DNA of 12,856 nucleotides from Candidatus Heimdallarchaeota archaeon B3_Heim. Its GTDB lineage: Archaea; Asgardarchaeota; Heimdallarchaeia; Hodarchaeales; Hodarchaeaceae. The stretch lies in NCBI GenBank assembly GCA_003144275.1, contig NJBF01000068.1:1-12856 (forward strand), in the 5' to 3' direction. Positions within the stretch are counted from its first letter, which is position 1; the number at the start of each line of letters is the position of its first letter. Of the stretch, positions 1 to 10,867 are shown one piece after another. A model generated the notes under the pieces. The model made no database searches and was not told where the DNA came from. It saw only the letters and a program-made list of their open reading frames with translations. A program made the position numbers and the translations under genes.

Positions 1-1094
1 TGCAGACAGTAAAAGGAACCACGAGATTTACGGTTCTTTTTATCTATATAGCCACACTTACTACACATTTGAGAGGTATACGCCTCGTTCACTCGAACTA
101 CTGTCATACCCACGAGTTTGGCTTTATATTCCAGCATCTGAACTAATTGTAAGAGGGGAAGTTGGACAAAGGCTTGGTTGGTGCGTTTTCCGAGGTTGCA
201 ATGCTGTTTCCACCCGACATTATACCCAATGACTAAGGTTTCAATATTGTGTGTTAAACAATAAGTGATGAGGCGTCGTGTGGTTTGATGGAAGAAAGCT
301 CGGAGTTTGTTCGTTCGTAAACGATGAAGACGGAGAATACGATGAGTAATCAGCTGGTGGTTGCAGGTGGAAGCCCTGGATCGATAGTGTGCAAGCTGTT
401 TGTTATACCACTGATTTATGGTCTTCACGACCCCGCCTTTGACGAGTAAGCCGTCTGACGTAGTTACGAGGTTGGTAAGTCCGAGATCAATTCCCATAGC
501 ACGGGAGGGCAAATCAGAGGAAGGAAACGCTTGCGCTTGCACTTCATAAATTAGTTCGACCACAAAGCGATCATAAAAGGGAACTAGCCGCGCACCCACA
601 CATGTTTCCGCTGTTAATGGAAGAGATCCCACTGGAAAGGCTGGAAAGCCTCGGGCCATGAGATTCCGGGCAAATAATATTTGATTATTACGGATTCGAA
701 CGCGGGGCCGAGGAAAGCTCAGTATATGCATCCCATTCTTGGGTTTATAGTTCGGGGTTCGGGGACGGGTTTGAAACTTAGTGGGATCTTTTTTCCAAGC
801 TTTCAAGGCATTAAAAAAGCCGCGCCAGACCTGTTCTATCTGTCGTAAGACTTGCTGGGGTAAATAGCTATCCGAGATGTGTTTTAATGTTAGATAAACT
901 GGTTCGTGCTTGAGCCGATGATATAGCGCCGTATACTGGAGCCATTTCCCTGTCCTGAAGAATTCTTGGCGGACCTCAAAGGTTGCGCGATTATAGAGAT
1001 TTTTGGAACAGGTGCACAAATCAACAAAAATAGGCCGCGGTTTCAGCTGCATTCGGATCGCTAACTGCGGTTGAGGGTGTTTCTTGGTGCGCAT
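1..1094 (-). CDS. tnpB: TnpB, RNA-guided endonuclease of the IS200/IS605 family; 3'-partial (364 codons visible, runs off the left edge)
   Basis: Manual translation from ATG at 1094 is stop-free to base 1: MRTKKHPQPQLAIRMQLK...SKNLYNRA...QQVLRQIEQVWRGFF...AMGIDLGLTNLVT (RuvC-I D203, nt 488-486)...LVIGYNVGWKQHCNLGKRTNQAFVQLP...LEYKAKLVG...VNEAYTSQMCSKCG...FYCL (Zn finger). SD-like GAGGTGGG lies immediately upstream. Not in the ORF track, presumably because the stop codon lies outside the window. Confidence 0.95.
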   Translation of the reverse strand, partial: MRTKKHPQPQLAIRMQLKPRPIFVDLCTCSKNLYNRATFEVRQEFFRTGKWLQYTALYHRLKHEPVYLTLKHISDSYLPQQVLRQIEQVWRGFFNALKAWKKDPTKFQTRPRTPNYKPKNGMHILSFPRPRVRIRNNQILFARNLMARGFPAFPVGSLPLTAETCVGARLVPFYDRFVVELIYEVQAQAFPSSDLPSRAMGIDLGLTNLVTTSDGLLVKGGVVKTINQWYNKQLAHYRSRASTCNHQLITHRILRLHRLRTNKLRAFFHQTTRRLITYCLTHNIETLVIGYNVGWKQHCNLGKRTNQAFVQLPLLQLVQMLEYKAKLVGMTVVRVNEAYTSQMCSKCGYIDKKNRKSRGSFYCL

Positions 1095-1115
1095 TCCCAC
1101 CTCTTTCTAGCATCT

Positions 1116-1220: not shown

Positions 1221-1231
1221 CAAATTTGATC

Positions 1232-2341
1232 ATGTTTTCTGATTATAATGAAAAACTTGCGAAATTGATTGTTCAATATGCAGTAAAAATTGAACCTGAA
1301 GACACTGTTATTATAAAAGCACCTACGATCGCTGAACCCTTGGTAAAGACTGTTTACCGCGAAACTTTACGAGCGGGAGGACATGTTATCTTAGTAGATC
1401 TTAGTTTTGATGGTCAAGATGAATTATTTTTCAAGTTCACGTCTGATAATCAACTAAAATACGTCAATCCTATTAAATTAGATATCGTGAAGACACTAAA
1501 GAAATACATCAATATCTATGCTTCCTTTAATACCAGGGATTTAACAAGTGTTCCTCCTGAGAAGAAAGTTATGGTTGCTGAAGCAGGTAAAGAGATGAAT
1601 AAAATTTTCCTTGAACGAGCAAGTACAAAGGAGCTCAGGTGGAATATTTCACCATTTCCGTGTAATGCTTTCGCTCAAGAAGCGAATATGGGCCCCTTAG
1701 AATATCTTGAATTTGCGTATAAAGCCCTTAATCTTCATCAACCCGATCCCGTGAAGTTTTGGCAGGACTTCGAGAAAAAACAACAGCACATTGTTGATAT
1801 ATTAAACAAAGGCTCTTTTTTGCAAATAATCGGTGAGGATACCGACCTTACTTTAGGAATAGCTCAACGTCCCTGGGAAAATTGTAGTGGTCATGAAAAT
1901 TTACCTGATGGCGAGGTCTTCACAGCCCCTATTGAAGATGCAGTTAATGGCACTATTCGATTCACCTATCCAGGGATTTTTTCTGGACAGGAGATAGAGG
2001 ACATTCGCTTAACCTTCAAAGATGGAAAAGTCGTCGACTTCGATGCAGATAAAGGGAAGGATTTACTAAATAAGATTGTCACCACAATTCCCAATGCTAA
2101 TATTTTAGGAGAGCTTGCTGTTGGTACAAATTATGGTATCCAGCGATTTACAAAGAATATGCTCTTTGATGAAAAAATGGGTGGAACTGTTCATCTTGCA
2201 TTAGGGGCAGGCTATCCAGAAACAGGCTCAAAGAATGAATCATCTATTCATTGGGATATACTTAAGGATATGAAATCTCCAGAATCCAAAATACTCCTCG
2301 ACGGAGAAATGATCTATAAAGAGGGAAAATGGCTAATTTAA
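1232..2341 (+). CDS. ampS: Aminopeptidase, peptidase family M29 (AmpS/PepS/AmpT-like thermophilic metalloprotease)
   Basis: Metal-site motifs NLPDGEVFTAP, LGELAVG, FDEKMGGTVHLALGAGY, SIHWDI. ATG at 1232 is preferred over the TTG at 1226 used by the ORF track. Confidence 0.93.
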   Translation: MFSDYNEKLAKLIVQYAVKIEPEDTVIIKAPTIAEPLVKTVYRETLRAGGHVILVDLSFDGQDELFFKFTSDNQLKYVNPIKLDIVKTLKKYINIYASFNTRDLTSVPPEKKVMVAEAGKEMNKIFLERASTKELRWNISPFPCNAFAQEANMGPLEYLEFAYKALNLHQPDPVKFWQDFEKKQQHIVDILNKGSFLQIIGEDTDLTLGIAQRPWENCSGHENLPDGEVFTAPIEDAVNGTIRFTYPGIFSGQEIEDIRLTFKDGKVVDFDADKGKDLLNKIVTTIPNANILGELAVGTNYGIQRFTKNMLFDEKMGGTVHLALGAGYPETGSKNESSIHWDILKDMKSPESKILLDGEMIYKEGKWLI

Positions 2342-2348
2342 TCCCCTC

Positions 2349-2366
2349 TTTACATTTTTCTTTTTT
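2349..2366 (+). terminator. Oligo-T tract, archaeal-type terminator after the aminopeptidase
   Basis: TTTACATTTTTCTTTTTT begins 8 nt after the stop codon, in a 24-bp convergent gap. Confidence 0.4.
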
Positions 2367-3232
2367 CAGCTAATTTTGAACCCTTCAATCTGCTGATTCT
2401 TTATCGAGGAAATTGCAGGATAACCAACCAATAATTTAACATTGTGAGATCTAAACTCCATTAATTTCTTATCTATGTTGGCATCTGTAATTATTAGCTC
2501 ATTCAAGCTATACCTGATAATTTTCTGAGCCTTCCTTGAGAACTCTGACCATGTAGAGTTTGTTAACTCATCTTTCCACAGATTGGCTGCTTTGAGTCTG
2601 TCTTGAAGGACACGTCGACGTAAAAGATAAGGGAGAAAATCACTGATATTGTTCTCAAATTGGTCAGTTTCGATAGCTAATGGGGTATAAATAGCCAAAG
2701 GACAGCTAATTTTCTTAGAAAAGCCATTCATTACACGATAATCCCCATTAAGAGCAAATGGAATCACTGGTGAATATGATCGACATATCGATTTAATAAT
2801 TCTTGTAGAAAGATTTTCTATCCCTAAAAACATTGGTCGATCTGTTCGTTGTCTAATTTGAGTAAAGGACTTATTAAGAGCATTCTCTACGGAGACAGTT
2901 TGATCAATATCATAGGCTGGATGCCCTGCAACCAGATTCAGACTCAGATTTGAGTTATCAGCTATCATGTCTAGGTAAGATCTCAAGAGATCATTACCAT
3001 TCTGAAATTCTAATGCCCTAACCGCTACTGTGAGAACCAACGTGTGATTAAGCTGAAGTAAAAGTTTTTTTATCTCCTTAATAGAAAGAAGATGATCTTT
3101 TCCTTCATAATCTAGAAATATAAACGAATGGTACTTATCAACGGTTAAGATAGAATTCAGAAAATCTTTTTTTCCAGAAAATTTGGTATATTTTAAAGCA
3201 ATACCTGTTAAAAACGTTTCTTTATTGTTCAG
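2366..3232 (-). CDS. Uncharacterised archaeal protein, DUF7388-like (often mis-annotated 'luciferase' in haloarchaea); start codon ambiguous (CTG 3232, or ATG 3248 with a +1 shift; ORF track uses TTG 3040)
   Basis: The frame is open from 3235 to 2366. The extension reads FLNNKETFLTGIALKYTKF...FIFLDYEGKDHLL...HT before the track's LVLTVAVR. Motifs ALK, DYEGxxHL, T..VRA..F, LVAGHPAY, AIYTP, Y..RRR and VGYPA match, in order, an archaeal family recalled from memory (not searched). Confidence 0.75.
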   Translation of the reverse strand: MNNKETFLTGIALKYTKFSGKKDFLNSILTVDKYHSFIFLDYEGKDHLLSIKEIKKLLLQLNHTLVLTVAVRALEFQNGNDLLRSYLDMIADNSNLSLNLVAGHPAYDIDQTVSVENALNKSFTQIRQRTDRPMFLGIENLSTRIIKSICRSYSPVIPFALNGDYRVMNGFSKKISCPLAIYTPLAIETDQFENNISDFLPYLLRRRVLQDRLKAANLWKDELTNSTWSEFSRKAQKIIRYSLNELIITDANIDKKLMEFRSHNVKLLVGYPAISSIKNQQIEGFKIS

Positions 3233-3248
3233 GAACTAAATCCCACAT
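3222..3248 (-). other. Short ORF MWDLVPEQ* (extendable to GTG 3290, 22 aa) overlapping the 5' end of the DUF7388-like frame; either its true N-terminus or a uORF
   Basis: ATG TGG GAT TTA GTT CCT GAA CAA TAA, preceded by SD-like GAGGT with a 7-nt spacer. Confidence 0.3.
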
Positions 3249-3290
3249 GAAATTAACCTCAATTTCAATTTTTTCGATTTCTATCTTCAC

Positions 3291-3342
3291 AAGAACGATT
3301 CCGTTCTTAATCTCACTAAAATTACTAGCCTAAAAAAGGCTA
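3291..3342. promoter_or_regulatory. Two inverted repeats in the divergent intergenic region
   Basis: AAGAACG-ATTC-CGTTCTT (3291-3308) and TAGCCT-AAAAA-AGGCTA (3326-3342); the second contains a minus-strand TTTTTTA TATA-like core. Confidence 0.35.
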
Positions 3343-3423
3343 ACTATACTGACATCATAGCTAATGTAATTCCTTACATTTCTCTTTTTCTTAGCGTGTA
3401 GACCCATTTTGACGATTTATCAA

Positions 3424-3466
3424 CACAAAAATTTAAATAGCATTATGAGCTTGCTTGATAATTATC
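3424..3466 (+). promoter_or_regulatory. Archaeal BRE-TATA promoter of the ABC operon
   Basis: A-rich BRE-like CACAAAAA followed by consensus TTTAAATA (3432-3439). Predicted TSS ~3461-3464 falls in the perfect palindrome GATAATTATC (3457-3466). Confidence 0.6.
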
Positions 3467-3538
3467 TCGGATACAATGTCGTTGATGTGTCAACACCTTC
3501 TTGAAGGCTATTAGAATTCTAAGAATCACTTCCGAGAT
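3464..3538 (+). promoter_or_regulatory. Candidate structured 5' leader (multi-branch fold)
   Basis: 8-bp closing stem ATCTCGGA/TCCGAGAT encloses three short hairpins (3481-3494, 3496-3507, 3511-3522). Confidence 0.3.
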
Positions 3539-3568
3539 CAATTAAAAGAAAATAACTGGTGTAAAAAT

Positions 3569-4969
3569 ATGAAAAATCGTATTAAAATAACTCTTTTGCT
3601 TGTTGGAATAATGTTTATTGCAACAATGACTGGTACTGCTAGAGCAGCACCTCAAAAAACACATGCTTTACCAGCTGAGATTAAAATTGGAGGCGTGTTC
3701 CCCATTACCGCTCGACCCGATGCTGGTCCCGATCGTCGTGATGGATTTTTGATTGCCGTCGCCGAGATCAATGCTCAAACTGGTACAGACCGGATCCTGC
3801 CGGAAGGAGTCACACTTGTTTCTAATGTTCAAGATGACTTAAACACTGCTGCTGGAGGCACTGCCGCCGCAGAAACCCTTTTAGCCTGGGGCGCGGATAT
3901 TGTCCTTGGGTCTTCTGGAAGTAGTGTAAGTGCCGCAATGGCTAGTGCACTTACTCCAACGAAAGTTGTTCAGATTTCCTATGCTTCGTCTTCGCCGTCA
4001 TTAAGCGATCGGACGTTATATCCTTACTTCATGCGAACATGTGCCTCGGATGCAGATCAAGGCTTAGCTATAGCTGAGCTTGTGAAAGCTTTCGGATGGA
4101 CAAAAGGAGCTGTAATTCATACAAGTGATTCTTATGGAACAGGTTTAATTGAAATCTTCAAAGACGCTTATACTGGAACCATCCTTACAGATCAATCATT
4201 CGAAGCTGGTGCAACTGATGTTTCTGCACAAGTTCAGTCTCTTAAAGATACAAATCCTGAGTTTATTCTAGGGAACTTCATTGATGAGGATGCAAAAACT
4301 GTTATGAAGAAAGCAAACGATCTAGATATGTTGGATTTAGTCTGGATAACCACTGATGGGTGGTCAACTCAGGCAACAATTACGGACGCAAAAGTCAAAG
4401 AAGCCATGGATTTATCAATCGGTACTAATCCCGCTCCAGCAGAGGGTACAGGAATGTCTGATTTCAATGATACTTGGTTTGATCCTGTATGGAACTATTT
4501 AGAAACCCCTGCTAACAGTCAAAGTACTGGAACTCCTTTCAATTCATATGCACCCTTTTCTTATGATACTGTATATGTCGCAGCCAAAGGGTTGGCAGCT
4601 GCTGGAACTACTGATGGTGATGCTTTATTAACTGCTCTTTATGCCGTCACACATGAAGGTGCAACCGGAAATATCAAGTTTAACGAACTTGGAGAAGTTA
4701 TCGGTAGGTACGATTATGTCCAACTCAGAGATGATACCTACTTTAAATTCGGTGAATATGCTATTCCATCAGGAGCAACCTCGGCAATAGGTGTCCTAGA
4801 TGATGCATCTGAATTCGAACTGGTAAATGGGTCAATATGGTCTATTGCAAACAATGTGGCGACATTTGTAAGATGGGATCCTGTAGATACTGCTCCTGGC
4901 TTTGAACTGCTAGCTGCAGCACTTGCTATTGGTATCTTAGTTATAACAGTGAAGAAACGAAGAAAATAA
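3569..4969 (+). CDS. livK: HAAT-family ABC transporter substrate-binding protein (type I PBP/Venus flytrap, LivK/ANF-receptor fold) with signal peptide and C-terminal PGF/CTERM-type membrane anchor; ligand not established
   Basis: Signal peptide MKNRIKITLLLVGIMFIATMTGTARA; motifs IKIGGVFP, GSSGSSVS, QISYASSSPSLSD..YPYFMRT, WITTDGW; C-terminus TAPGFELLAAALAIGILVITVKKRRK; first gene of a liv-type operon; GGTG SD-like site upstream. Confidence 0.9.
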   Translation: MKNRIKITLLLVGIMFIATMTGTARAAPQKTHALPAEIKIGGVFPITARPDAGPDRRDGFLIAVAEINAQTGTDRILPEGVTLVSNVQDDLNTAAGGTAAAETLLAWGADIVLGSSGSSVSAAMASALTPTKVVQISYASSSPSLSDRTLYPYFMRTCASDADQGLAIAELVKAFGWTKGAVIHTSDSYGTGLIEIFKDAYTGTILTDQSFEAGATDVSAQVQSLKDTNPEFILGNFIDEDAKTVMKKANDLDMLDLVWITTDGWSTQATITDAKVKEAMDLSIGTNPAPAEGTGMSDFNDTWFDPVWNYLETPANSQSTGTPFNSYAPFSYDTVYVAAKGLAAAGTTDGDALLTALYAVTHEGATGNIKFNELGEVIGRYDYVQLRDDTYFKFGEYAIPSGATSAIGVLDDASEFELVNGSIWSIANNVATFVRWDPVDTAPGFELLAAALAIGILVITVKKRRK

Positions 4970-5085: not shown

Positions 5086-5823
5086 ATGAGTCAAACAGTG
5101 CTCCGTGGAGAAAAAATTTACTCTGGTTACGGAAAACTTCAGGTAATCAATGGGATTGACATTCACATAGATGAAGGTGAATTAGTAACGATTATCGGTC
5201 CAAACGGTTCTGGTAAGTCAACTTTGATTAGAACAATGATTGGATTGGTGAACTTATTCGATGGTCATGTATTTATTCGTGACAAAGAAGTAAGCAGGAT
5301 GAAACCTCATGAAATCATTGAAGCTGGTATTCCTCTTGGTTATGTCCCACAACTTTCGAATGTATTCCCAAGTTTAACAATTGAAGAAAACCTTAAAATG
5401 GGACTATTTGTCAAAAAATGGGATGATTATTACCAAGAAAGAACGCATGAAATGTTTAAACTATTTCCTATCCTGGAGGAGAGAATAAAACAAAAAGCTA
5501 GTTTGCTGAGTGGAGGAGAACGACAGATGCTAGCACTAGCGAGAGCTTTAATGCCTTCACCAGAAGTTCTTATTCTGGATGAACCTACTGCTGCATTAGC
5601 TCCCAATTTAGCGGAAGATATGTTACAATTAATTGTTTCTTTAAAGAAGGAATTGAAAATTTCAATTCTACTTGTCGAACAGCGTGCAAAACGTTCGATG
5701 GAACTCTCTGACCGTGGTTATGTATTAGTAACAGGAGAAATTGCGGCTGAAGGACCAGCAAATGAACTTTTAGCTGAAGACAAAATTAAAAAACTATACC
5801 TCGGAGTAAGAGATCGCAAATAA
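5086..5823 (+). CDS. livF: HAAT ABC transporter ATP-binding subunit, LivF-like
   Basis: Walker A GPNGSGKS, YVPQ..NVFPSLTIEENL, signature LSGGERQMLALARAL, Walker B LILDEP, LivF-type LLVEQ. Confidence 0.92.
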   Translation: MSQTVLRGEKIYSGYGKLQVINGIDIHIDEGELVTIIGPNGSGKSTLIRTMIGLVNLFDGHVFIRDKEVSRMKPHEIIEAGIPLGYVPQLSNVFPSLTIEENLKMGLFVKKWDDYYQERTHEMFKLFPILEERIKQKASLLSGGERQMLALARALMPSPEVLILDEPTAALAPNLAEDMLQLIVSLKKELKISILLVEQRAKRSMELSDRGYVLVTGEIAAEGPANELLAEDKIKKLYLGVRDRK

Positions 5824-5869: not shown

Positions 5870-6958
5870 ATGGCAGGAATTATCCCAATAGATATTGTGA
5901 GTCATACCTCTCTCATAATAGTGTATGCTTCAACCTTGATATTGTTGACAATTGGCCTAAATATGATCTATTCTGTACTTAAATTCTCGAATTTTGCTCA
6001 TGCTGAATTCATTACGTTTGGTATGTTTACCTCATGGTGGTTATTGCAAATTTTGACGTTTGCTCTCCCATGGGACTCATCAATGTATTTGATTAACAAC
6101 CTGATTATTCAAGCATTATTTGCATTTGTGATGGTTGGTATTTTGGGAATTGCAAGTGAAGTGCTAGTTTTTGGTCGATTAAAAAGACTTGCAGCCAACC
6201 CCAGATCTTTCACTGTAGCATCTATAGGAATAGGGCTCGTTATTAGAAATTTTCTTGCAATGATATTTGGCAATTTTCCAAAACCAAATAGGGGCGGTAC
6301 TTCAATTGCAGCACTTCCATTCGATATTGATATTGGTATTAAACAGACTTTGATCAGAAATGACCCATTTTTTGGAAACCAAGGAATTTTTATTACCAGT
6401 TTTGAGGTTATAATTATTCTTATGAGCATTGGAACGGTTTTCACAGTGGATTATATGTTTAGAAAAACTAAACTTGGAATTGCTATGAGAGCCACCTCTG
6501 ATTCAGTCGAATTAGCTCAAGTTTCTGGAATAAACACACGAAAAGTTGTTTTTTACACTTGGTTTCTAGCTGCTGGAATTACTGGTTTCGGTGCTGCTTT
6601 ATTGCGAGCTAATCAGCCTCGATTCAGTACTTTGGATGGTTTTATGATGCTTCTACCAATTTTCGCTGTCGTTATTCTTGGTGGCGTAGGATCTTTCCGT
6701 GGAGGGATAATTTCTGCTTTTATAATAGCAGGTGTTAGACAATTAACTGTTATTATCTTTACTCAATTTCAAAGCCCTGGCGGACTTGAATATATGATTG
6801 AAGATTTCTTTTACCGTATAACTGGGATAGAGGGATTAGTAATTACTTTTGCACCAGGTTATGCGGATGGAGTCGGTTTTTTGGTCTTAATTTTTGTACT
6901 ACTGTTCCGACCTCAAGGTATATCTGGAACCGTGGAAGCGACTAGAGAGAGGGTGTAA
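5870..6958 (+). CDS. livH: HAAT ABC transporter permease, LivH-like
   Basis: GLNMIYSVLKFSNFAHAEF, TKLGIAMRATSDSVELAQVSGIN, VILGGVGSFRGGII, LFRPQGI; multiple TM helices. Confidence 0.9.
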   Translation: MAGIIPIDIVSHTSLIIVYASTLILLTIGLNMIYSVLKFSNFAHAEFITFGMFTSWWLLQILTFALPWDSSMYLINNLIIQALFAFVMVGILGIASEVLVFGRLKRLAANPRSFTVASIGIGLVIRNFLAMIFGNFPKPNRGGTSIAALPFDIDIGIKQTLIRNDPFFGNQGIFITSFEVIIILMSIGTVFTVDYMFRKTKLGIAMRATSDSVELAQVSGINTRKVVFYTWFLAAGITGFGAALLRANQPRFSTLDGFMMLLPIFAVVILGGVGSFRGGIISAFIIAGVRQLTVIIFTQFQSPGGLEYMIEDFFYRITGIEGLVITFAPGYADGVGFLVLIFVLLFRPQGISGTVEATRERV

Positions 6959-6977: not shown

Positions 6978-8303
6978 ATGGCTGGAAGAATATTAAAATA
7001 CGAAATGGATGAAAAATTACGAACTTTGGTTGTCGGATTCGCACTAGCTATTCCAATTCTCTACCTTTATATTTATGCTCTTCTTGCCCAGACCAATAAA
7101 TCAATATTTCTTATCGGTACTGTACTAGCAATTCTTGTTTTCTTTATAGGAGCTCTGAGCTTAGATCTGGAAGTTGGTTCAGTTGGTTTGCCGAATTTCG
7201 GAAAAGTGGCCTTCTTTGCTTTGGGTGCGTACATCTCAACGCTCCTATATAGTGTGTATAGATGGCCATTCTATCACATTTATGGTATTGGTCCAATTGC
7301 TCAATTCCTCTTCTCTAGCCTGGTAGCAATAATTATTTGCGCTTTAGTAGGCTTTTTAGTCGCTATTCCCACTGTAAAACTTCGAGCAGATTATTTTGCA
7401 ATCATGACAATTGCGGGTGGGGAGGTTATTCGATTAATACTACAATATGAGAAACGTTGGTTTTGGGCACCAGCCCCAGTAGGGCCACCTCAACAAGTTA
7501 TCTCAAACAGAGCAATAGTCGAATTCACCACAGGCCTTTATCCATTTAACAAGACTTTAGCTTACTTTGGATTTACATTTTTTGAAGATAGTAATTTAGG
7601 TTCGGTCTTTCTCTGGCAAATAGTAGTGATAGTAATTTTTATTCTTATAGCCATTACGACTTATTGGTTTGTTCAACAAATAAGAAAATCTCCTTATGGA
7701 AGAACACTACGTGCGATTCGTGAAGACGATATCACTGTTACTTCTGTTGGTAAAGATGTTTCTCGCTTTCGTTGGCAAGTAACTACCCTTGCAGCATGTA
7801 TTGCTGGTTTGGCTGGTATTATGTACGCAATGACTTTCAAAGCGTTTGAAGCAGGAGATTTCAGGCCATTTCTTACTTTTGATCTTTATATTTTCATAAT
7901 AATTGGAGGATTGGGGAATAGTCGTGGAGCATTTGCAGGAACAGCGCTTGTTCAAATGTTTCTCCGAGCAGCACAAGTTCAAGAGGTAAAAGAAAACATT
8001 TCTCTCTATTTAGGAAGTGAATCACCAGTCATTGGTCCACTGTTCGAATTTTTACAGTTGGATGTGTTTATAAATCCAGATAACATGAGATTAGTTATCT
8101 TGGGAGTTATTTTGATTCTTTTTCTGTTATTTATGCCTGCAGGATTAATTCCTGAACCAAAAACAAACAATGAAAAGTATTTAAAGCAATTGACACCTGA
8201 AGAACGCATGCGTTCTGATGAGGCTGTTTCAGCAAGGCAGAGTCTTACCGAAAGAGAAAGAATAGGTAATGAAGATACTACTGAACCAAGTTCAAAGTTT
8301 TAG
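6978..8303 (+). CDS. livM: HAAT ABC transporter permease, LivM-like, with a charged C-terminal tail
   Basis: GLPNFGKVAFFALGAY, LRADYFAIMTIAGGEVIRL, SPYGRTLRAIREDD, IIGGLGNSRGAFAG, FMPAGLIPE. Confidence 0.9.
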   Translation: MAGRILKYEMDEKLRTLVVGFALAIPILYLYIYALLAQTNKSIFLIGTVLAILVFFIGALSLDLEVGSVGLPNFGKVAFFALGAYISTLLYSVYRWPFYHIYGIGPIAQFLFSSLVAIIICALVGFLVAIPTVKLRADYFAIMTIAGGEVIRLILQYEKRWFWAPAPVGPPQQVISNRAIVEFTTGLYPFNKTLAYFGFTFFEDSNLGSVFLWQIVVIVIFILIAITTYWFVQQIRKSPYGRTLRAIREDDITVTSVGKDVSRFRWQVTTLAACIAGLAGIMYAMTFKAFEAGDFRPFLTFDLYIFIIIGGLGNSRGAFAGTALVQMFLRAAQVQEVKENISLYLGSESPVIGPLFEFLQLDVFINPDNMRLVILGVILILFLLFMPAGLIPEPKTNNEKYLKQLTPEERMRSDEAVSARQSLTERERIGNEDTTEPSSKF

Positions 8304-8311
8304 GAGAATAG

Positions 8312-9220
8312 ATGTTGGAGTCACTAGAGTTGGAAAAAGACCCAGATAATATTAGTTTATCAGCTCAGAATATTCACAAATACTTTGGGGGAGTAAAAGC
8401 TCTTGAAGGGGCTTCTGTTGTAGTTTCGAAGAATAAATTAATCTCATTAATAGGTCCTAATGGATCGGGGAAAACTACTCTTTTCAATGTCATTTCTTGT
8501 TGGTCACCAAAATCTCATCCAGACGATCTATTAGAAGAAGATGAAGTAAAAATTCAGAAACGATTCCTTGACGGGATTAATAGAAAATTTGGAGGAAAGG
8601 AAGAATCTGAGGAAACTCCTTCTGAAGAAGTTGGTTCTGTTGATTTTGAAGACCTTAGATTGGATGGCCTAAACGCTCATGAAGCGGCGTTAACGGGCAT
8701 GATGCGTACGTTCCAAACGACGCGAAATTGGCCAAAATTAACCGTTCTTGAAAATTTACTTGTAGCACCTCAACATCAGACAGGGGAGTCTTTCATAAAT
8801 ATCTTCTTTAAAAGAAAACAAATAGAGGAAGAAGAACGTATCAATACTTTGAAAGCATTAGAAATATTAGACTTTCTTGAAATTACGCATATCCGGGATC
8901 AAATCGGAGAAGAACTTTCAGGTGGGCAATTGAAATTATTAGCCTTAGGACGATTGTTAATGACTGCTCCCCGATTAATTCTATTGGACGAACCAATGGC
9001 CGGAATAAATCCAACCTTAGGTAACAAAATCATGGATAAAATTTTGGAACTCAAAGTAGACTCAACAATCTTCCTGATTGAACACAATATGGATGTAGTG
9101 TTTAACTACTCCGATGAAATCTTTGTCATGGCTAGAGGTAAGATCATTGCTCAAGGTACTCCCAACGAAATTGAATCTAATAAAGAAGTGATTGAGGCAT
9201 ACTTGGGAGCAGATTACTGA
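8312..9220 (+). CDS. livG: HAAT ABC transporter ATP-binding subunit, LivG-like, with an acidic insertion after Walker A
   Basis: KYFGGVKAL, Walker A GPNGSGKTTLFN, RTFQ, LTVLENL, LSGGQ, LLDEPMAGIN, IEHNMD, EVIEAYLG; GGAG SD-like site upstream. Confidence 0.92.
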   Translation: MLESLELEKDPDNISLSAQNIHKYFGGVKALEGASVVVSKNKLISLIGPNGSGKTTLFNVISCWSPKSHPDDLLEEDEVKIQKRFLDGINRKFGGKEESEETPSEEVGSVDFEDLRLDGLNAHEAALTGMMRTFQTTRNWPKLTVLENLLVAPQHQTGESFINIFFKRKQIEEEERINTLKALEILDFLEITHIRDQIGEELSGGQLKLLALGRLLMTAPRLILLDEPMAGINPTLGNKIMDKILELKVDSTIFLIEHNMDVVFNYSDEIFVMARGKIIAQGTPNEIESNKEVIEAYLGADY

Positions 9221-9236: not shown

Positions 9237-10481
9237 ATGCCCATCTCCCAGAAAAAAGATATTTCTGCAAAATCCAGTTTAATTTCCGCATTTCTTGTCC
9301 ATTTATTTGTGGAAATTCCATATTTTATCTTCCCCGTTTTAGTACTAGTTGTTGGGGAAGATCTAAATTTGGGGGAGTTCATGTGGATTGGGTTGGGATC
9401 TATTGGTACTATAGGAGCTTTAGCTGCAGGTTTACCAGCACCATTAGTTGGATGGTTTTCGGATCGTTCTCGGAGAGGCATGATGATGTGTCTTAGTTTA
9501 ATCCTTAGCGCGTTGGGAGCTTTCATAATTGGGTTATCCGACTCTTCCCTCGTCATTACAATCTTTAGTTTTGGCCTTATAGGTCTAGGAGTTGGACTGT
9601 ATCATCCTCCGGGATTATCGTGGGTCGCATCTGCTTTTAAGGATGAAGAAAATGGGGGTTACTCCTCATATATTAATAGAATTTTAGGAGTTCACGGAGT
9701 AGGAGGTACAATTGGTTCCGCTGTTGGGCCCATATCTGTTTTTTTCTTATTAAATATAATGAATTGGCGGCAAATTTATCTATTATGGTCGTTTCCCTTA
9801 TTTCTTCTAAGTTTATTATTTTGGGTGTTTGTAGCAAGATTTGAATCTCCTCGGGAAAAAGAGAATAATATTCACGTTAAGAACGAATCAACTAATTTTC
9901 GAATTAAACTTAAATCAAATATAAGCCCTACAATGCTAATAATATTTGTATTTATGGTTCTTATGTCACTAACATGGGGGATGGTTAGTTTTGTACTAGC
10001 GCCATTTCTCTCTGAAGTCAAAGGGTTTGATATTTCACACGCAGCCTTATTTATTGGAGTGTCCCACCTGTTTGGAGCATCAGGTCAACTTTTAGGAGGT
10101 GTGATGGCGGATAAATATACGGAGAAAGTAGCTCTCCTATTTGCATCGGCTCTTCAAGGTGTTGTCATACTTGGAATTTACATCCTCAACCCTCCAGCGG
10201 TCCTGTTTGCATTATATATGATTCTATTCATTGTCAATGCTATTTTTTGGCCCACAACAAATAGCTTTCTAGCTAAAAATACCACTCAAATCGGCAGCGC
10301 CTTTGGTGGATTTATGTTAACAGTGAATGTCGTACGAGCAGCAGGACCAACCATTGATGGGTTTTTAATCACATTGAATCCAAGTAATTATCTATTAATT
10401 TTCGTTTTCGCAGTTATATTTTCAATTGCAGCTTTTCTGACACTAACTATGGTGAAAGGAAAATCCGATTTCTCTTCTTAA
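9237..10481 (+). CDS. Major facilitator superfamily transporter, substrate unknown
   Basis: ~12 hydrophobic segments; motif A-like GWFSDRSRRG and GVMADKYTEK; YHPPG in TM4; starts 16 bp after livG. Confidence 0.88.
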   Translation: MPISQKKDISAKSSLISAFLVHLFVEIPYFIFPVLVLVVGEDLNLGEFMWIGLGSIGTIGALAAGLPAPLVGWFSDRSRRGMMMCLSLILSALGAFIIGLSDSSLVITIFSFGLIGLGVGLYHPPGLSWVASAFKDEENGGYSSYINRILGVHGVGGTIGSAVGPISVFFLLNIMNWRQIYLLWSFPLFLLSLLFWVFVARFESPREKENNIHVKNESTNFRIKLKSNISPTMLIIFVFMVLMSLTWGMVSFVLAPFLSEVKGFDISHAALFIGVSHLFGASGQLLGGVMADKYTEKVALLFASALQGVVILGIYILNPPAVLFALYMILFIVNAIFWPTTNSFLAKNTTQIGSAFGGFMLTVNVVRAAGPTIDGFLITLNPSNYLLIFVFAVIFSIAAFLTLTMVKGKSDFSS

Positions 10482-10867
10482 GACTCTGGAAGGCAATAAA
10501 TAATGGCTTCAATTTCTAGATGTACTTCTCTAAGTAAAGGGCCAACTTGCACAGTCGATCTTGCAGGGGGGTTTTCAGGGAAAAATTCTGAGTAAGCAGT
10601 GTTAAATCTGTCAAATAATCTCATATCTGTCAAAAAAACTGTTGTTTTTACTGTATTTTTCAATGTTGTACCTGCTGCCTCAGCAATTGCTGAAAGATTT
10701 TGCATAACTTGTCGAGTCTCATCTTCTATGTTTTCGTTAATTAACTTCTTTGTTTCAGGATTGTAAGCGATTTGTCCAGCAGTAAACAAAAAATCGCCAG
10801 CTTTGATCCCTTGACTATAATAACCTCCAGGAGGAGTCCCCTTATCCGTTTTAATAACTTCTACCAT
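10478..10867 (-). CDS. ridA: RidA-family (YjgF/YER057c/UK114) reactive imine/enamine deaminase
   Basis: P.GGYYSQGIKAGDFLFTAGQI, QVMQNL, VKTTVFLTDM, FNTAYSEFF, PPARSTVQV (catalytic Arg), LEIEAI (Glu). Confidence 0.93.
   Translation of the reverse strand: MVEVIKTDKGTPPGGYYSQGIKAGDFLFTAGQIAYNPETKKLINENIEDETRQVMQNLSAIAEAAGTTLKNTVKTTVFLTDMRLFDRFNTAYSEFFPENPPARSTVQVGPLLREVHLEIEAIIYCLPES

Follow-up and report, generated by a model that had tools for sequence, protein, structure and literature searches.

The DNA analyzed here is a stretch of 12,856 nucleotides from Candidatus Heimdallarchaeota archaeon B3_Heim (in the following, the window), which encodes at positions 3569-4969 of the plus strand a substrate-binding protein (SBP) of 466 amino acids, P0001. 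Its own family (family A) and a second SBP family from Heimdallarchaeota and Kariarchaeaceae (family K) are the closest prokaryotic relatives found of the Venus-flytrap (VFT) domains of class C GPCRs (G protein-coupled receptors) and plant glutamate receptor-like proteins (GLRs), which belong to the eukaryotic VFT domains that we refer to as group E. We consider it likely that P0001 is the extracellular SBP of an amino-acid importer of the Liv/hydrophobic amino acid uptake transporter (HAAT) type in a member of the Hodarchaeales, and that its lineage is a transport-type relative of the stock that most probably gave rise to the eukaryotic sensor domains.

Receptor-like sequence and fold of P0001

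The original prediction, made from the sequence alone, had placed an ATP-binding cassette (ABC) substrate-binding protein with a close resemblance to class C receptor VFT domains at positions 3674-4768. This range is real and corresponds to residues 36-400 of the open reading frame, and every motif quoted for it (IKIGGVFP, GPDRRDGFLIAVAEIN..ILPEGVTL, LGSSGSSVS, QISYASSSPSLSDRTLYPYFMRTCASD, FGWT..SDSYG, WITTDGW and FNELGEVIGRYD) is present in the translation. A phmmer comparison of P0001 with all PDB sequences gave 115 matches, the best of which is the metabotropic glutamate receptor (mGluR) mGluR8 (E = 7e-19); no bacterial SBP is found among the best 60 of the 115, which are mGluR1-8 or GABA-B2. 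The HMMER alignments to human mGluR8 and mGluR3 pair residues 112-269 and 345-387 and run through the motifs listed above. At the level of structure, the AlphaFold2 (AF2) model, calculated with a 72-sequence alignment, has a mean pLDDT of 93.3 and a pTM of 0.85 and consists of lobes with alternating beta strands and alpha helices. Structure prediction had been suggested as a check, and a Foldseek search with the model against the PDB returned exclusively VFT domains of mGluR, the calcium-sensing receptor (CaSR) or GABA-B in the top 50, at target TM-scores of about 0.7 and without any bacterial SBP in these 50. The likeness of P0001 to the VFT domains of mGluR and GABA-B is far beyond chance.

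Scoring with hidden Markov models (HMMs) also places P0001 on the glutamate-receptor-like rather than on the LivK-like side. Both Pfam matches lie within residues 37-387 and are well above their cut-offs, with 168.9 bits for ANF_receptor (cut-off 25.4) and 113.4 bits for Peripla_BP_6 (cut-off 31.7), and the NCBIfam model of LivJ/LivK, NF011933, reaches 64.4 bits, below its cut-off of 477 bits. A comparison of the two Pfam scores (ANF_receptor versus Peripla_BP_6, in bits) revealed the same order for P0001 (169 versus 113), its paralogue P0008 (167 versus 102), family K (P0295, 285 versus 157), a eukaryotic GPCR VFT domain (P0155, 228 versus 113) and the third, ordinary-looking paralogue of the genome (118 versus 113), in contrast to the reversed order in bacterial SBPs (128-157 versus 215-232) and in LivJ of Escherichia coli (86 versus 179).

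The architecture of the protein (Table 1) agrees with the secreted, membrane-anchored form that had been proposed. The hydrophobic stretch of the signal peptide comprises residues 5-23 (helix 2-20 in the AF2 model), and cleavage, as read from the translation, would be expected after residue 26. The C-terminal tail matches the Heimdall-CTERM model NF045529 with 25.4 bits in a six-frame search of the genome and with 21.2 bits in the protein scan (cut-off 24); in all, 25 tails of this type were counted in the genome. Pfam does not detect a 7tm_3 domain in P0001, whose hydrophobic segments are the signal peptide and one C-terminal transmembrane (TM) helix; the latter is the TM helix of the sorting signal, and a cytoplasmic domain is absent. 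These features predict a protein that is exported and anchored C-terminally at the surface, by a chemistry that we presume from the type of the tail. An archaeosortase/exosortase (PF09721) was not found in the genome assembly of 3.95 Mb, which at a completeness of 94% is not evidence of its absence.

Relatives and phylogenetic position

A phmmer search with P0001 in 1.84 billion representative proteins yielded 8410 matches. The nearest homologues (80-86% identity) are from Hodarchaeota or Hodarchaeales metagenome-assembled genomes (MAGs), and all named close relatives are assigned to Hodarchaeales, Hodarchaeota or Heimdallarchaeota; therefore, the host is an Asgard archaeon of the class Heimdallarchaeia, order Hodarchaeales, which is the kind of host for which the original prediction had expected most. 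Beyond family A, the best matches are multi-VFT proteins and proteins of about 460 amino acids, followed by ordinary SBPs. About 27 of the long multi-VFT proteins carry 7tm_3. The source names in group E include Macleaya GLR, fern, Euglena, Rhodelphis, coral and fish mGluRs, and the neighbours on the contigs of this group are genes for cofilin, a DHHC-ankyrin protein, an unsplit Rpb1, Ric8 or a PDEase fusion. Judged by 7tm_3 domains, source names and neighbouring genes, the 7tm_3 and multi-VFT proteins are eukaryotic. The proteins of about 460 amino acids are, where named, from Kariarchaeaceae or Heimdallarchaeota and represent family K; some unnamed ones adjoin Asgard hallmark genes (actin, E2 ubiquitin-conjugating enzyme, Arf-family GTPase) and others archaeal ribosomal-protein clusters. 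The ordinary SBPs further down (370-410 amino acids) are from Peptococcaceae, ANME-2 and others.

For the phylogeny, the matches were cut into single VFT domains using a purpose-built HMM and the trees were rooted on E. coli LivJ/LivK. Three trees were calculated: a FastTree tree of 288 domains, an IQ-TREE maximum-likelihood (ML) tree of 107 domains (LG+C20+F+G4 PMSF) and a second one of 89 domains with changed sampling (tree 2). In all three trees A, K and E form one clade, with a support of 100/100 and a stem of 0.47-0.54 substitutions per site, and every sampled ordinary SBP is outside; this also holds for the top-scoring sequences that were taken from 400 genomes each of Bacillota and of the Methanoperedens phylum. 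An approximately unbiased (AU) test rejects a position of E outside the group of A, K and the nearest SBPs (delta lnL 103, p = 0.0005). Family A is monophyletic (100/100) and located outside [K+E] in both IQ-TREE trees, where the [K+E] group is supported with 100/99 (107 domains) and 98/86 (89 domains); E includes 7tm_3 GPCRs, fish mGluRs, plant GLRs, Euglena and coral. The sister group of [A+K+E] contains a Hodarchaeales SBP, which is the third paralogue of the genome. A close relationship to the eukaryotic domain, as had been suggested for P0001, is thus found in the ML trees, in which P0001 is clearly placed apart from the ordinary SBPs. In the full phmmer scan, the FastTree tree and the 400 Bacillota genomes, no homologue from bacteria appeared that was as close. 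One qualification has to be added: because family K is closer to the eukaryotic domains than family A, P0001 represents a sister lineage of the eukaryotic VFT domains rather than their nearest prokaryotic relative, and we infer the direction from archaeon to eukaryote.

The reciprocal search was performed with a profile of 18 exclusively eukaryotic VFT domains (alignment A3) against 5.8 billion proteins. It retrieved family K with 266-466 bits (named members: Kariarchaeaceae/Heimdallarchaeota), and the next ordinary SBP followed at 156 bits; the top match even outscored one member of the A3 alignment itself. As this search was word-prefiltered, it is supportive and not exhaustive.

Within the clade the VFT domain occurs in several further arrangements. 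P0008, a second copy in the genome of the window (contig C93:23657-24961; L002:1105-2658, minus strand), is 82% identical to P0001 and has 517 amino acids, with a stalk of Ser/Thr/Asp-rich repeats in front of the anchor; no ABC genes are located in the 4 kb examined around it, which makes it an orphan VFT. P0090, P0091, P0123 and P0127 from Hodarchaeales/Kariarchaeaceae belong to the family-A clade and comprise about 650 amino acids with signal peptide, VFT domain, a TM helix at about 465-485 and, on the cytoplasmic side, a tail of some 170 amino acids, for which sub-threshold matches to MarR-like winged-helix models (about 20 bits) were obtained. From their sequence, these four proteins look like membrane-spanning one-component receptors built on a family-A VFT domain. 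Among P0099-P0104 (Hodarchaeales), family-A VFT domains are found as tandem double VFTs of 914 amino acids and as fusions to NosD/parallel beta-helix domains of 870-1110 amino acids with Thr/Pro-rich stalks and anchors. The metagenomic proteins P0106 and P0107 (about 1000-1070 amino acids) start with SBP_bac_3 and a weak Lig_chan-Glu_bd match, followed by two VFT domains, which group with the third paralogue of the genome in the sister group of [A+K+E]. On the eukaryotic side, P0155 (L036, a JGI metagenome contig) is a GABA-B-like GPCR of a protist with one VFT domain directly on 7tm_3 and no cysteine-rich domain; its gene adjoins a Ric8 homologue, and its VFT domain is 41% identical to P0295 of family K.

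Ligand site and link to the ABC importer

Residue columns were compared in the alignment of the 107 domains, and the mGluR site columns were checked against the fish mGluRs P0108 and P0110. In mGluR1 structures, Arg and Lys contact the distal carboxylate, and Ser, Thr, Tyr and Asp contact the alpha-amino-acid moiety. The equivalences assigned in the original prediction hold in this alignment: R56 occupies the mGluR Arg column, S118/S119 correspond to the Ser-Ser of mGluR, S141 stands in the Thr column, and Y189 and D263 are conserved. The alpha-amino-acid contact columns (S118/S119, position 141, Y189 and D263) are kept in all groups including LivJ, with Ser at position 141 in family A and Thr elsewhere, and Glu in the D263 column of LivJ. 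Six further residues, G42 and F44 (GG[LV]FP), R56, Y138 (QISY), P152 (YPYF) and W259 (W..DGW), are common to A, K and most of E and are not shared by ordinary SBPs. Since the contact residues are kept in all groups, LivJ included, an alpha-amino acid is the best guess and probably the ligand of P0001. The column of mGluR Lys409 holds Tyr327, as had been noted before, and a specificity for glutamate is unproven.

The gene of P0001 is the first of an operon with the order SBP-livF-livH-livM-livG, which bears out the proposed link to an ABC transporter; 116 bases separate the SBP gene from livF. This order is kept in ten family-A loci of Hodarchaeota, Heimdallarchaeota and Methanoperedens-type MAGs, with L006-L008 and L010-L015 among them, and across orders. 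In family K, seven loci have a divergent livFHMG operon and three members (L024-L026) are orphans. Based on the gene context and the residues of the site, the function of P0001 would be an ordinary one, namely amino-acid uptake via a Liv-type ABC importer. In the mechanism that we propose, a Sec-type signal peptide would direct the export of the protein, and the Heimdall-CTERM tail would keep it at the cell surface. The two-lobed VFT domain would close on an alpha-amino acid, with Ser118/Ser119, Ser141, Tyr189 and Asp263 holding the alpha-carboxylate and alpha-ammonium groups, and the loaded SBP would dock on the LivH/LivM permease, where ATP hydrolysis by LivG/LivF would drive import.

With E. 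coli LivJ/LivK and other SBPs of the HAAT family (TC 3.A.1.4) P0001 shares the type I periplasmic binding protein (PBP) fold, the signal peptide, the livH/M/G/F neighbours and, for the alpha-amino acid, the columns with Ser, Thr/Ser, Tyr and Asp/Glu. Whereas those proteins are free or lipoproteins, P0001 possesses a stalk and a putative Heimdall-CTERM anchor; it is also about 100 amino acids longer and is separated from LivJ/LivK and the sampled bacterial SBPs by a 100/100 branch. Of the PDB entries, the class C GPCR VFT domains (mGluR, GABA-B, CaSR) match it best in both sequence and structure; they fall into the same ML clade and have the GG(L/V)FP, Arg56, QISY, YPYF and W..DGW signatures in common with it. 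In contrast to these receptors, P0001 lacks 7tm_3, the cysteine-rich domain and G-protein coupling and has a single C-terminal anchor helix and an ABC importer; moreover, Tyr replaces the distal Lys of mGluR and the overall identity to animal mGluR VFT domains is about 23-27%. Family K (e.g., P0295, P0303, P0121) resembles P0001 in signal peptide, VFT domain and PGF-type tail, with many members linked divergently to livFHMG, and belongs at about 30-40% identity to the same super-clade; unlike P0001, it is nearer to the eukaryotic VFT domains, with ANF_receptor scores of up to 285 bits and 41% identity to the VFT domain of a GABA-B-like GPCR. Amino-terminal domains of plant GLRs, such as Macleaya GLR (P0250) and a fern homologue (P0216), are located in the eukaryotic part of the clade, but differ from P0001 by their fusion to an ion channel and their long branches.

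Distribution and horizontal transfer

A match at E <= 1e-30 was detected in 18 of 400 Asgard genomes, and all but one belong to the class of the window; the match outside this class is 66% identical and looks like a transfer. In the genus to which the window belongs, 6 of 22 genomes carry a match, and in the largest family 0 of 135. None of the 400 Bacillota genomes reaches E <= 1e-30, and among the 400 genomes of the Methanoperedens phylum the one Methanoperedens genome is the single case. Family A is mostly composed of Hodarchaeales sequences, and the Methanoperedens-type sequences are nested inside, which suggests a transfer out of Heimdallarchaeia to Methanoperedens-type archaea. Family K occurs in other Heimdallarchaeial families, and no member was found in the 94% complete genome of the window. 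An additional contig scan with one degenerate peptide pattern yielded 18 loci and served for organism names and synteny; being limited to a single pattern, it sets no bound on the range of the family.

Origin of the eukaryotic sensor domain

Among the Asgard classes, Heimdallarchaeia are the one that is placed nearest to the eukaryotes. Heimdallarchaeial SBPs are found on three branches that follow each other around the eukaryotic clade, namely the group of the third paralogue, family A and family K. This pattern favours a Heimdallarchaeial SBP as the ancestor of the eukaryotic domain, and the eukaryotic sensor domain came most probably from the A/K stock. A more detailed scenario, on which our belief and our doubt are evenly matched, is that the VFT domain of class C GPCRs and GLRs was inherited from the SBP of a Heimdallarchaeial and not of a bacterial importer, that A and K are the surviving transport-type relatives, and that the fusions of VFT, TM helix and winged helix-turn-helix (wHTH) domain reflect a recruitment as receptor before the eukaryotes.

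Several points weigh against these conclusions. The groups for the AU tests were chosen after the first tree had been seen, and neither the monophyly of A+K (p = 0.24; 0.40 with a better constrained tree of the same bipartition) nor that of E (p = 0.35) is rejected. In tree 2 the eukaryotic pair P0155/P0213 (GABA-B-like/PDE-linked) branches before K and the other E sequences; the order in which A, K and E branch is tentative. Many of the branches on the eukaryotic side are long and have an unusual composition, the position of the root among ordinary SBPs is an assumption, and the trees are without GABA-B, CaSR/T1R, natriuretic-peptide receptors and the amino-terminal domains of animal ionotropic glutamate receptors. 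Feature look-alikes in the ESM Atlas, which we treat as leads only, are archaeal and some bacterial ANF_receptor clusters (scores 0.87-0.96), the bacterial clusters with scores of 0.89-0.91. Bacteria were sampled indirectly, by the phmmer top 150, one word-limited profile search, one phylum and a single-pattern scan, so that a rare bacterial member could be missed. The family is patchy even in its own genus (6/22) and is also found in Methanoperedens-type archaea, thus horizontal transfer is active. Finally, with Tyr327 in the column of the distal-carboxylate Lys and Ser141 in place of the usual Thr, any assignment of the ligand specificity of P0001 is tentative.

The most serious alternative reverses the direction: A and K would descend from a eukaryotic VFT domain that was captured by archaea and re-used as an ABC binding protein, and the resemblance would then be silent on the origin. 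The patchy Asgard distribution (18/400 genomes), the horizontal movement of the family to Methanoperedens and to one genome of another Asgard class, the position of K inside the eukaryotic diversity in tree 2, with P0155/P0213 first (95/83), and the branch order left unsettled by the AU tests would all be in line with it. We nevertheless assume that such a capture is improbable, as A and K alike are found in canonical ABC operons of the standard livFHMG type and have archaeal sorting tails. A receptor domain would have had to regain permease docking two times, which is a less parsimonious course than the accepted one, in which an SBP became a receptor. Furthermore, A is outside [K+E] in both IQ-TREE trees, the monophyly of E is not rejected, and a Hodarchaeales SBP is again found in the sister group of the whole clade (the third paralogue).

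Two other explanations concern P0001 itself, and to both we give very little credence. If the protein were an ordinary LivJ/LivK-like branched-chain binding protein and its likeness to class C receptors generic to type I PBPs, the Liv-type operon, the NCBIfam match to the LivJ/LivK subfamily and the alpha-amino-acid contacts common to LivJ would be expected, and the ANF_receptor model indeed also matches in E. coli and six other control genomes. This reading is contradicted by the present evidence, as the NCBIfam match is weak (64 bits versus a cut-off of 477), the order of the ANF_receptor and Peripla_BP_6 scores is opposite to that of LivJ and bacterial SBPs, bacterial SBPs are missing from the best 60 of 115 PDB matches and from the Foldseek top 50, the clade with the eukaryotic VFT domains is supported by 100/100 and by the AU test (p = 0.0005), and the six signature residues are common only to A, K and E. 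Alternatively, P0001 might mainly be a surface sensor that signals via a partner or in the manner of the VFT-TM-wHTH fusions, with a secondary link to the transporter. The clade indeed contains such fusions, with a weak MarR-like wHTH domain, and orphans without ABC genes (P0008 and the K members L024-L026). For P0001 itself, a sensor role is hardly to be expected with a gene located 116 bases 5' of livF in an operon order kept across orders, and with the TM helix of the sorting signal as the only one and no cytoplasmic domain. Hence, the SBP of an amino-acid importer remains our preferred reading for P0001.

Genomic neighbourhood

The features of the window are listed in Table 1. The SBP gene is preceded by an AT-rich spacer of 528 bases (3041-3568). 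LivG has 302 amino acids, and the ABC_tran and LivG models match two stretches of it (about 32-100 and 106-300); compared with LivG of E. coli, the ATPase domain may therefore carry an insertion. The best specific model for the KamA-family aminomutase is glutamate 2,3-aminomutase, with 215 bits against a cut-off of 650 bits, and its N-terminal extension of about 190 amino acids has no family match. Two metatranscriptome libraries, both from one study, contain contigs (85-95% alike) that extend over the SBP gene and, to a small extent, over the permease genes; they do not show transcription, as DNA carry-over is possible and the sequences are from relatives and not from this strain. Runs from marine sediment and cold seeps contain at most half of the sampled words.

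Table 1. Genes and protein features in the window (positions in nucleotides of the window).
Feature	Position	Strand	Evidence and remarks
TnpB-type RNA-guided endonuclease of an IS200/IS605-like element	3-1100	-	NF040570, 170 bits; runs off the left end of the window
M29 aminopeptidase	1226-2341	+	288 bits; syntenic in Hodarchaeota locus L007
Weak DUF7388 protein	2366-3040	-	
VFT-type substrate-binding protein gene (P0001, 466 aa)	3569-4969	+	Open reading frame; Pfam ANF_receptor/Peripla_BP_6; AF2 model
Putative signal peptide, residues 1-26	3569-3646	+	Basic N-terminus, hydrophobic core, A-R-A then AP
VFT (type I PBP) domain, residues 36-400	3674-4768	+	Pfam; two-lobed alpha/beta model; Foldseek
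Short beta-rich stalk between VFT and anchor, residues 401-441	4769-4891	+	Model strands 407-436; no Pfam match
Putative Heimdall-CTERM sorting/anchor signal (PGF, TM helix, KKRRK)	4892-4966	+	NF045529; TM residues 443-461
livF-type ABC ATPase	5086-5823	+	PF00005; LivF/UrtE models 193-207 bits; syntenic in L006-L015
livH-type permease	5870-6958	+	PF02653, 90.7 bits; synteny
livM-type permease	6978-8303	+	PF02653, 125.6 bits; LivM model 86 bits; synteny
livG-type ABC ATPase with BCA_ABC_TP_C tail	8312-9220	+	PF00005, PF12399; LivG model 184.6 bits; synteny
Major facilitator superfamily (MFS) transporter directly 3' of livG	9237-10481	+	PF07690, 121 bits; same place in Hodarchaeota L006 and L008
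RidA/L-PSP family protein	10478-10867	-	PF01042, 116 bits; between MFS and aminomutase genes
KamA-family radical-SAM aminomutase, 604 aa	10939-12753	-	TIGR00238, 328 bits

Implications

The ligand domains of class C GPCRs (mGluR, GABA-B, CaSR, taste receptors) and of glutamate-receptor channels have consistently been described, in reviews as well as research papers, as derived from bacterial periplasmic binding proteins (PMC2670285, PMC12965686, PMC13466386). In the literature that we searched on ANF_receptor, the Venus flytrap or metabotropic glutamate together with Asgard archaea or Heimdallarchaeota, we found no paper that draws the link described here. A preprint of October 2026 lists “a class C GPCR” among structural clusters exclusive to Asgard archaea and eukaryotes, with no further detail (PMC13734099), and this cluster may represent the same family.

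For the window alone, the function of P0001 would be ordinary amino-acid uptake. What is unusual is the ancestry, as the closest prokaryotic relatives found of the eukaryotic VFT domain still serve ABC importers. If the proposed relationship is true, a signalling module would join the eukaryotic parts that derive from Asgard archaea, and a better outgroup would be at hand for the evolution of class C receptors. Furthermore, small, soluble prokaryotic VFT domains with 35-41% identity to the VFT domains of GPCRs would become available for structural and ligand-recognition studies.

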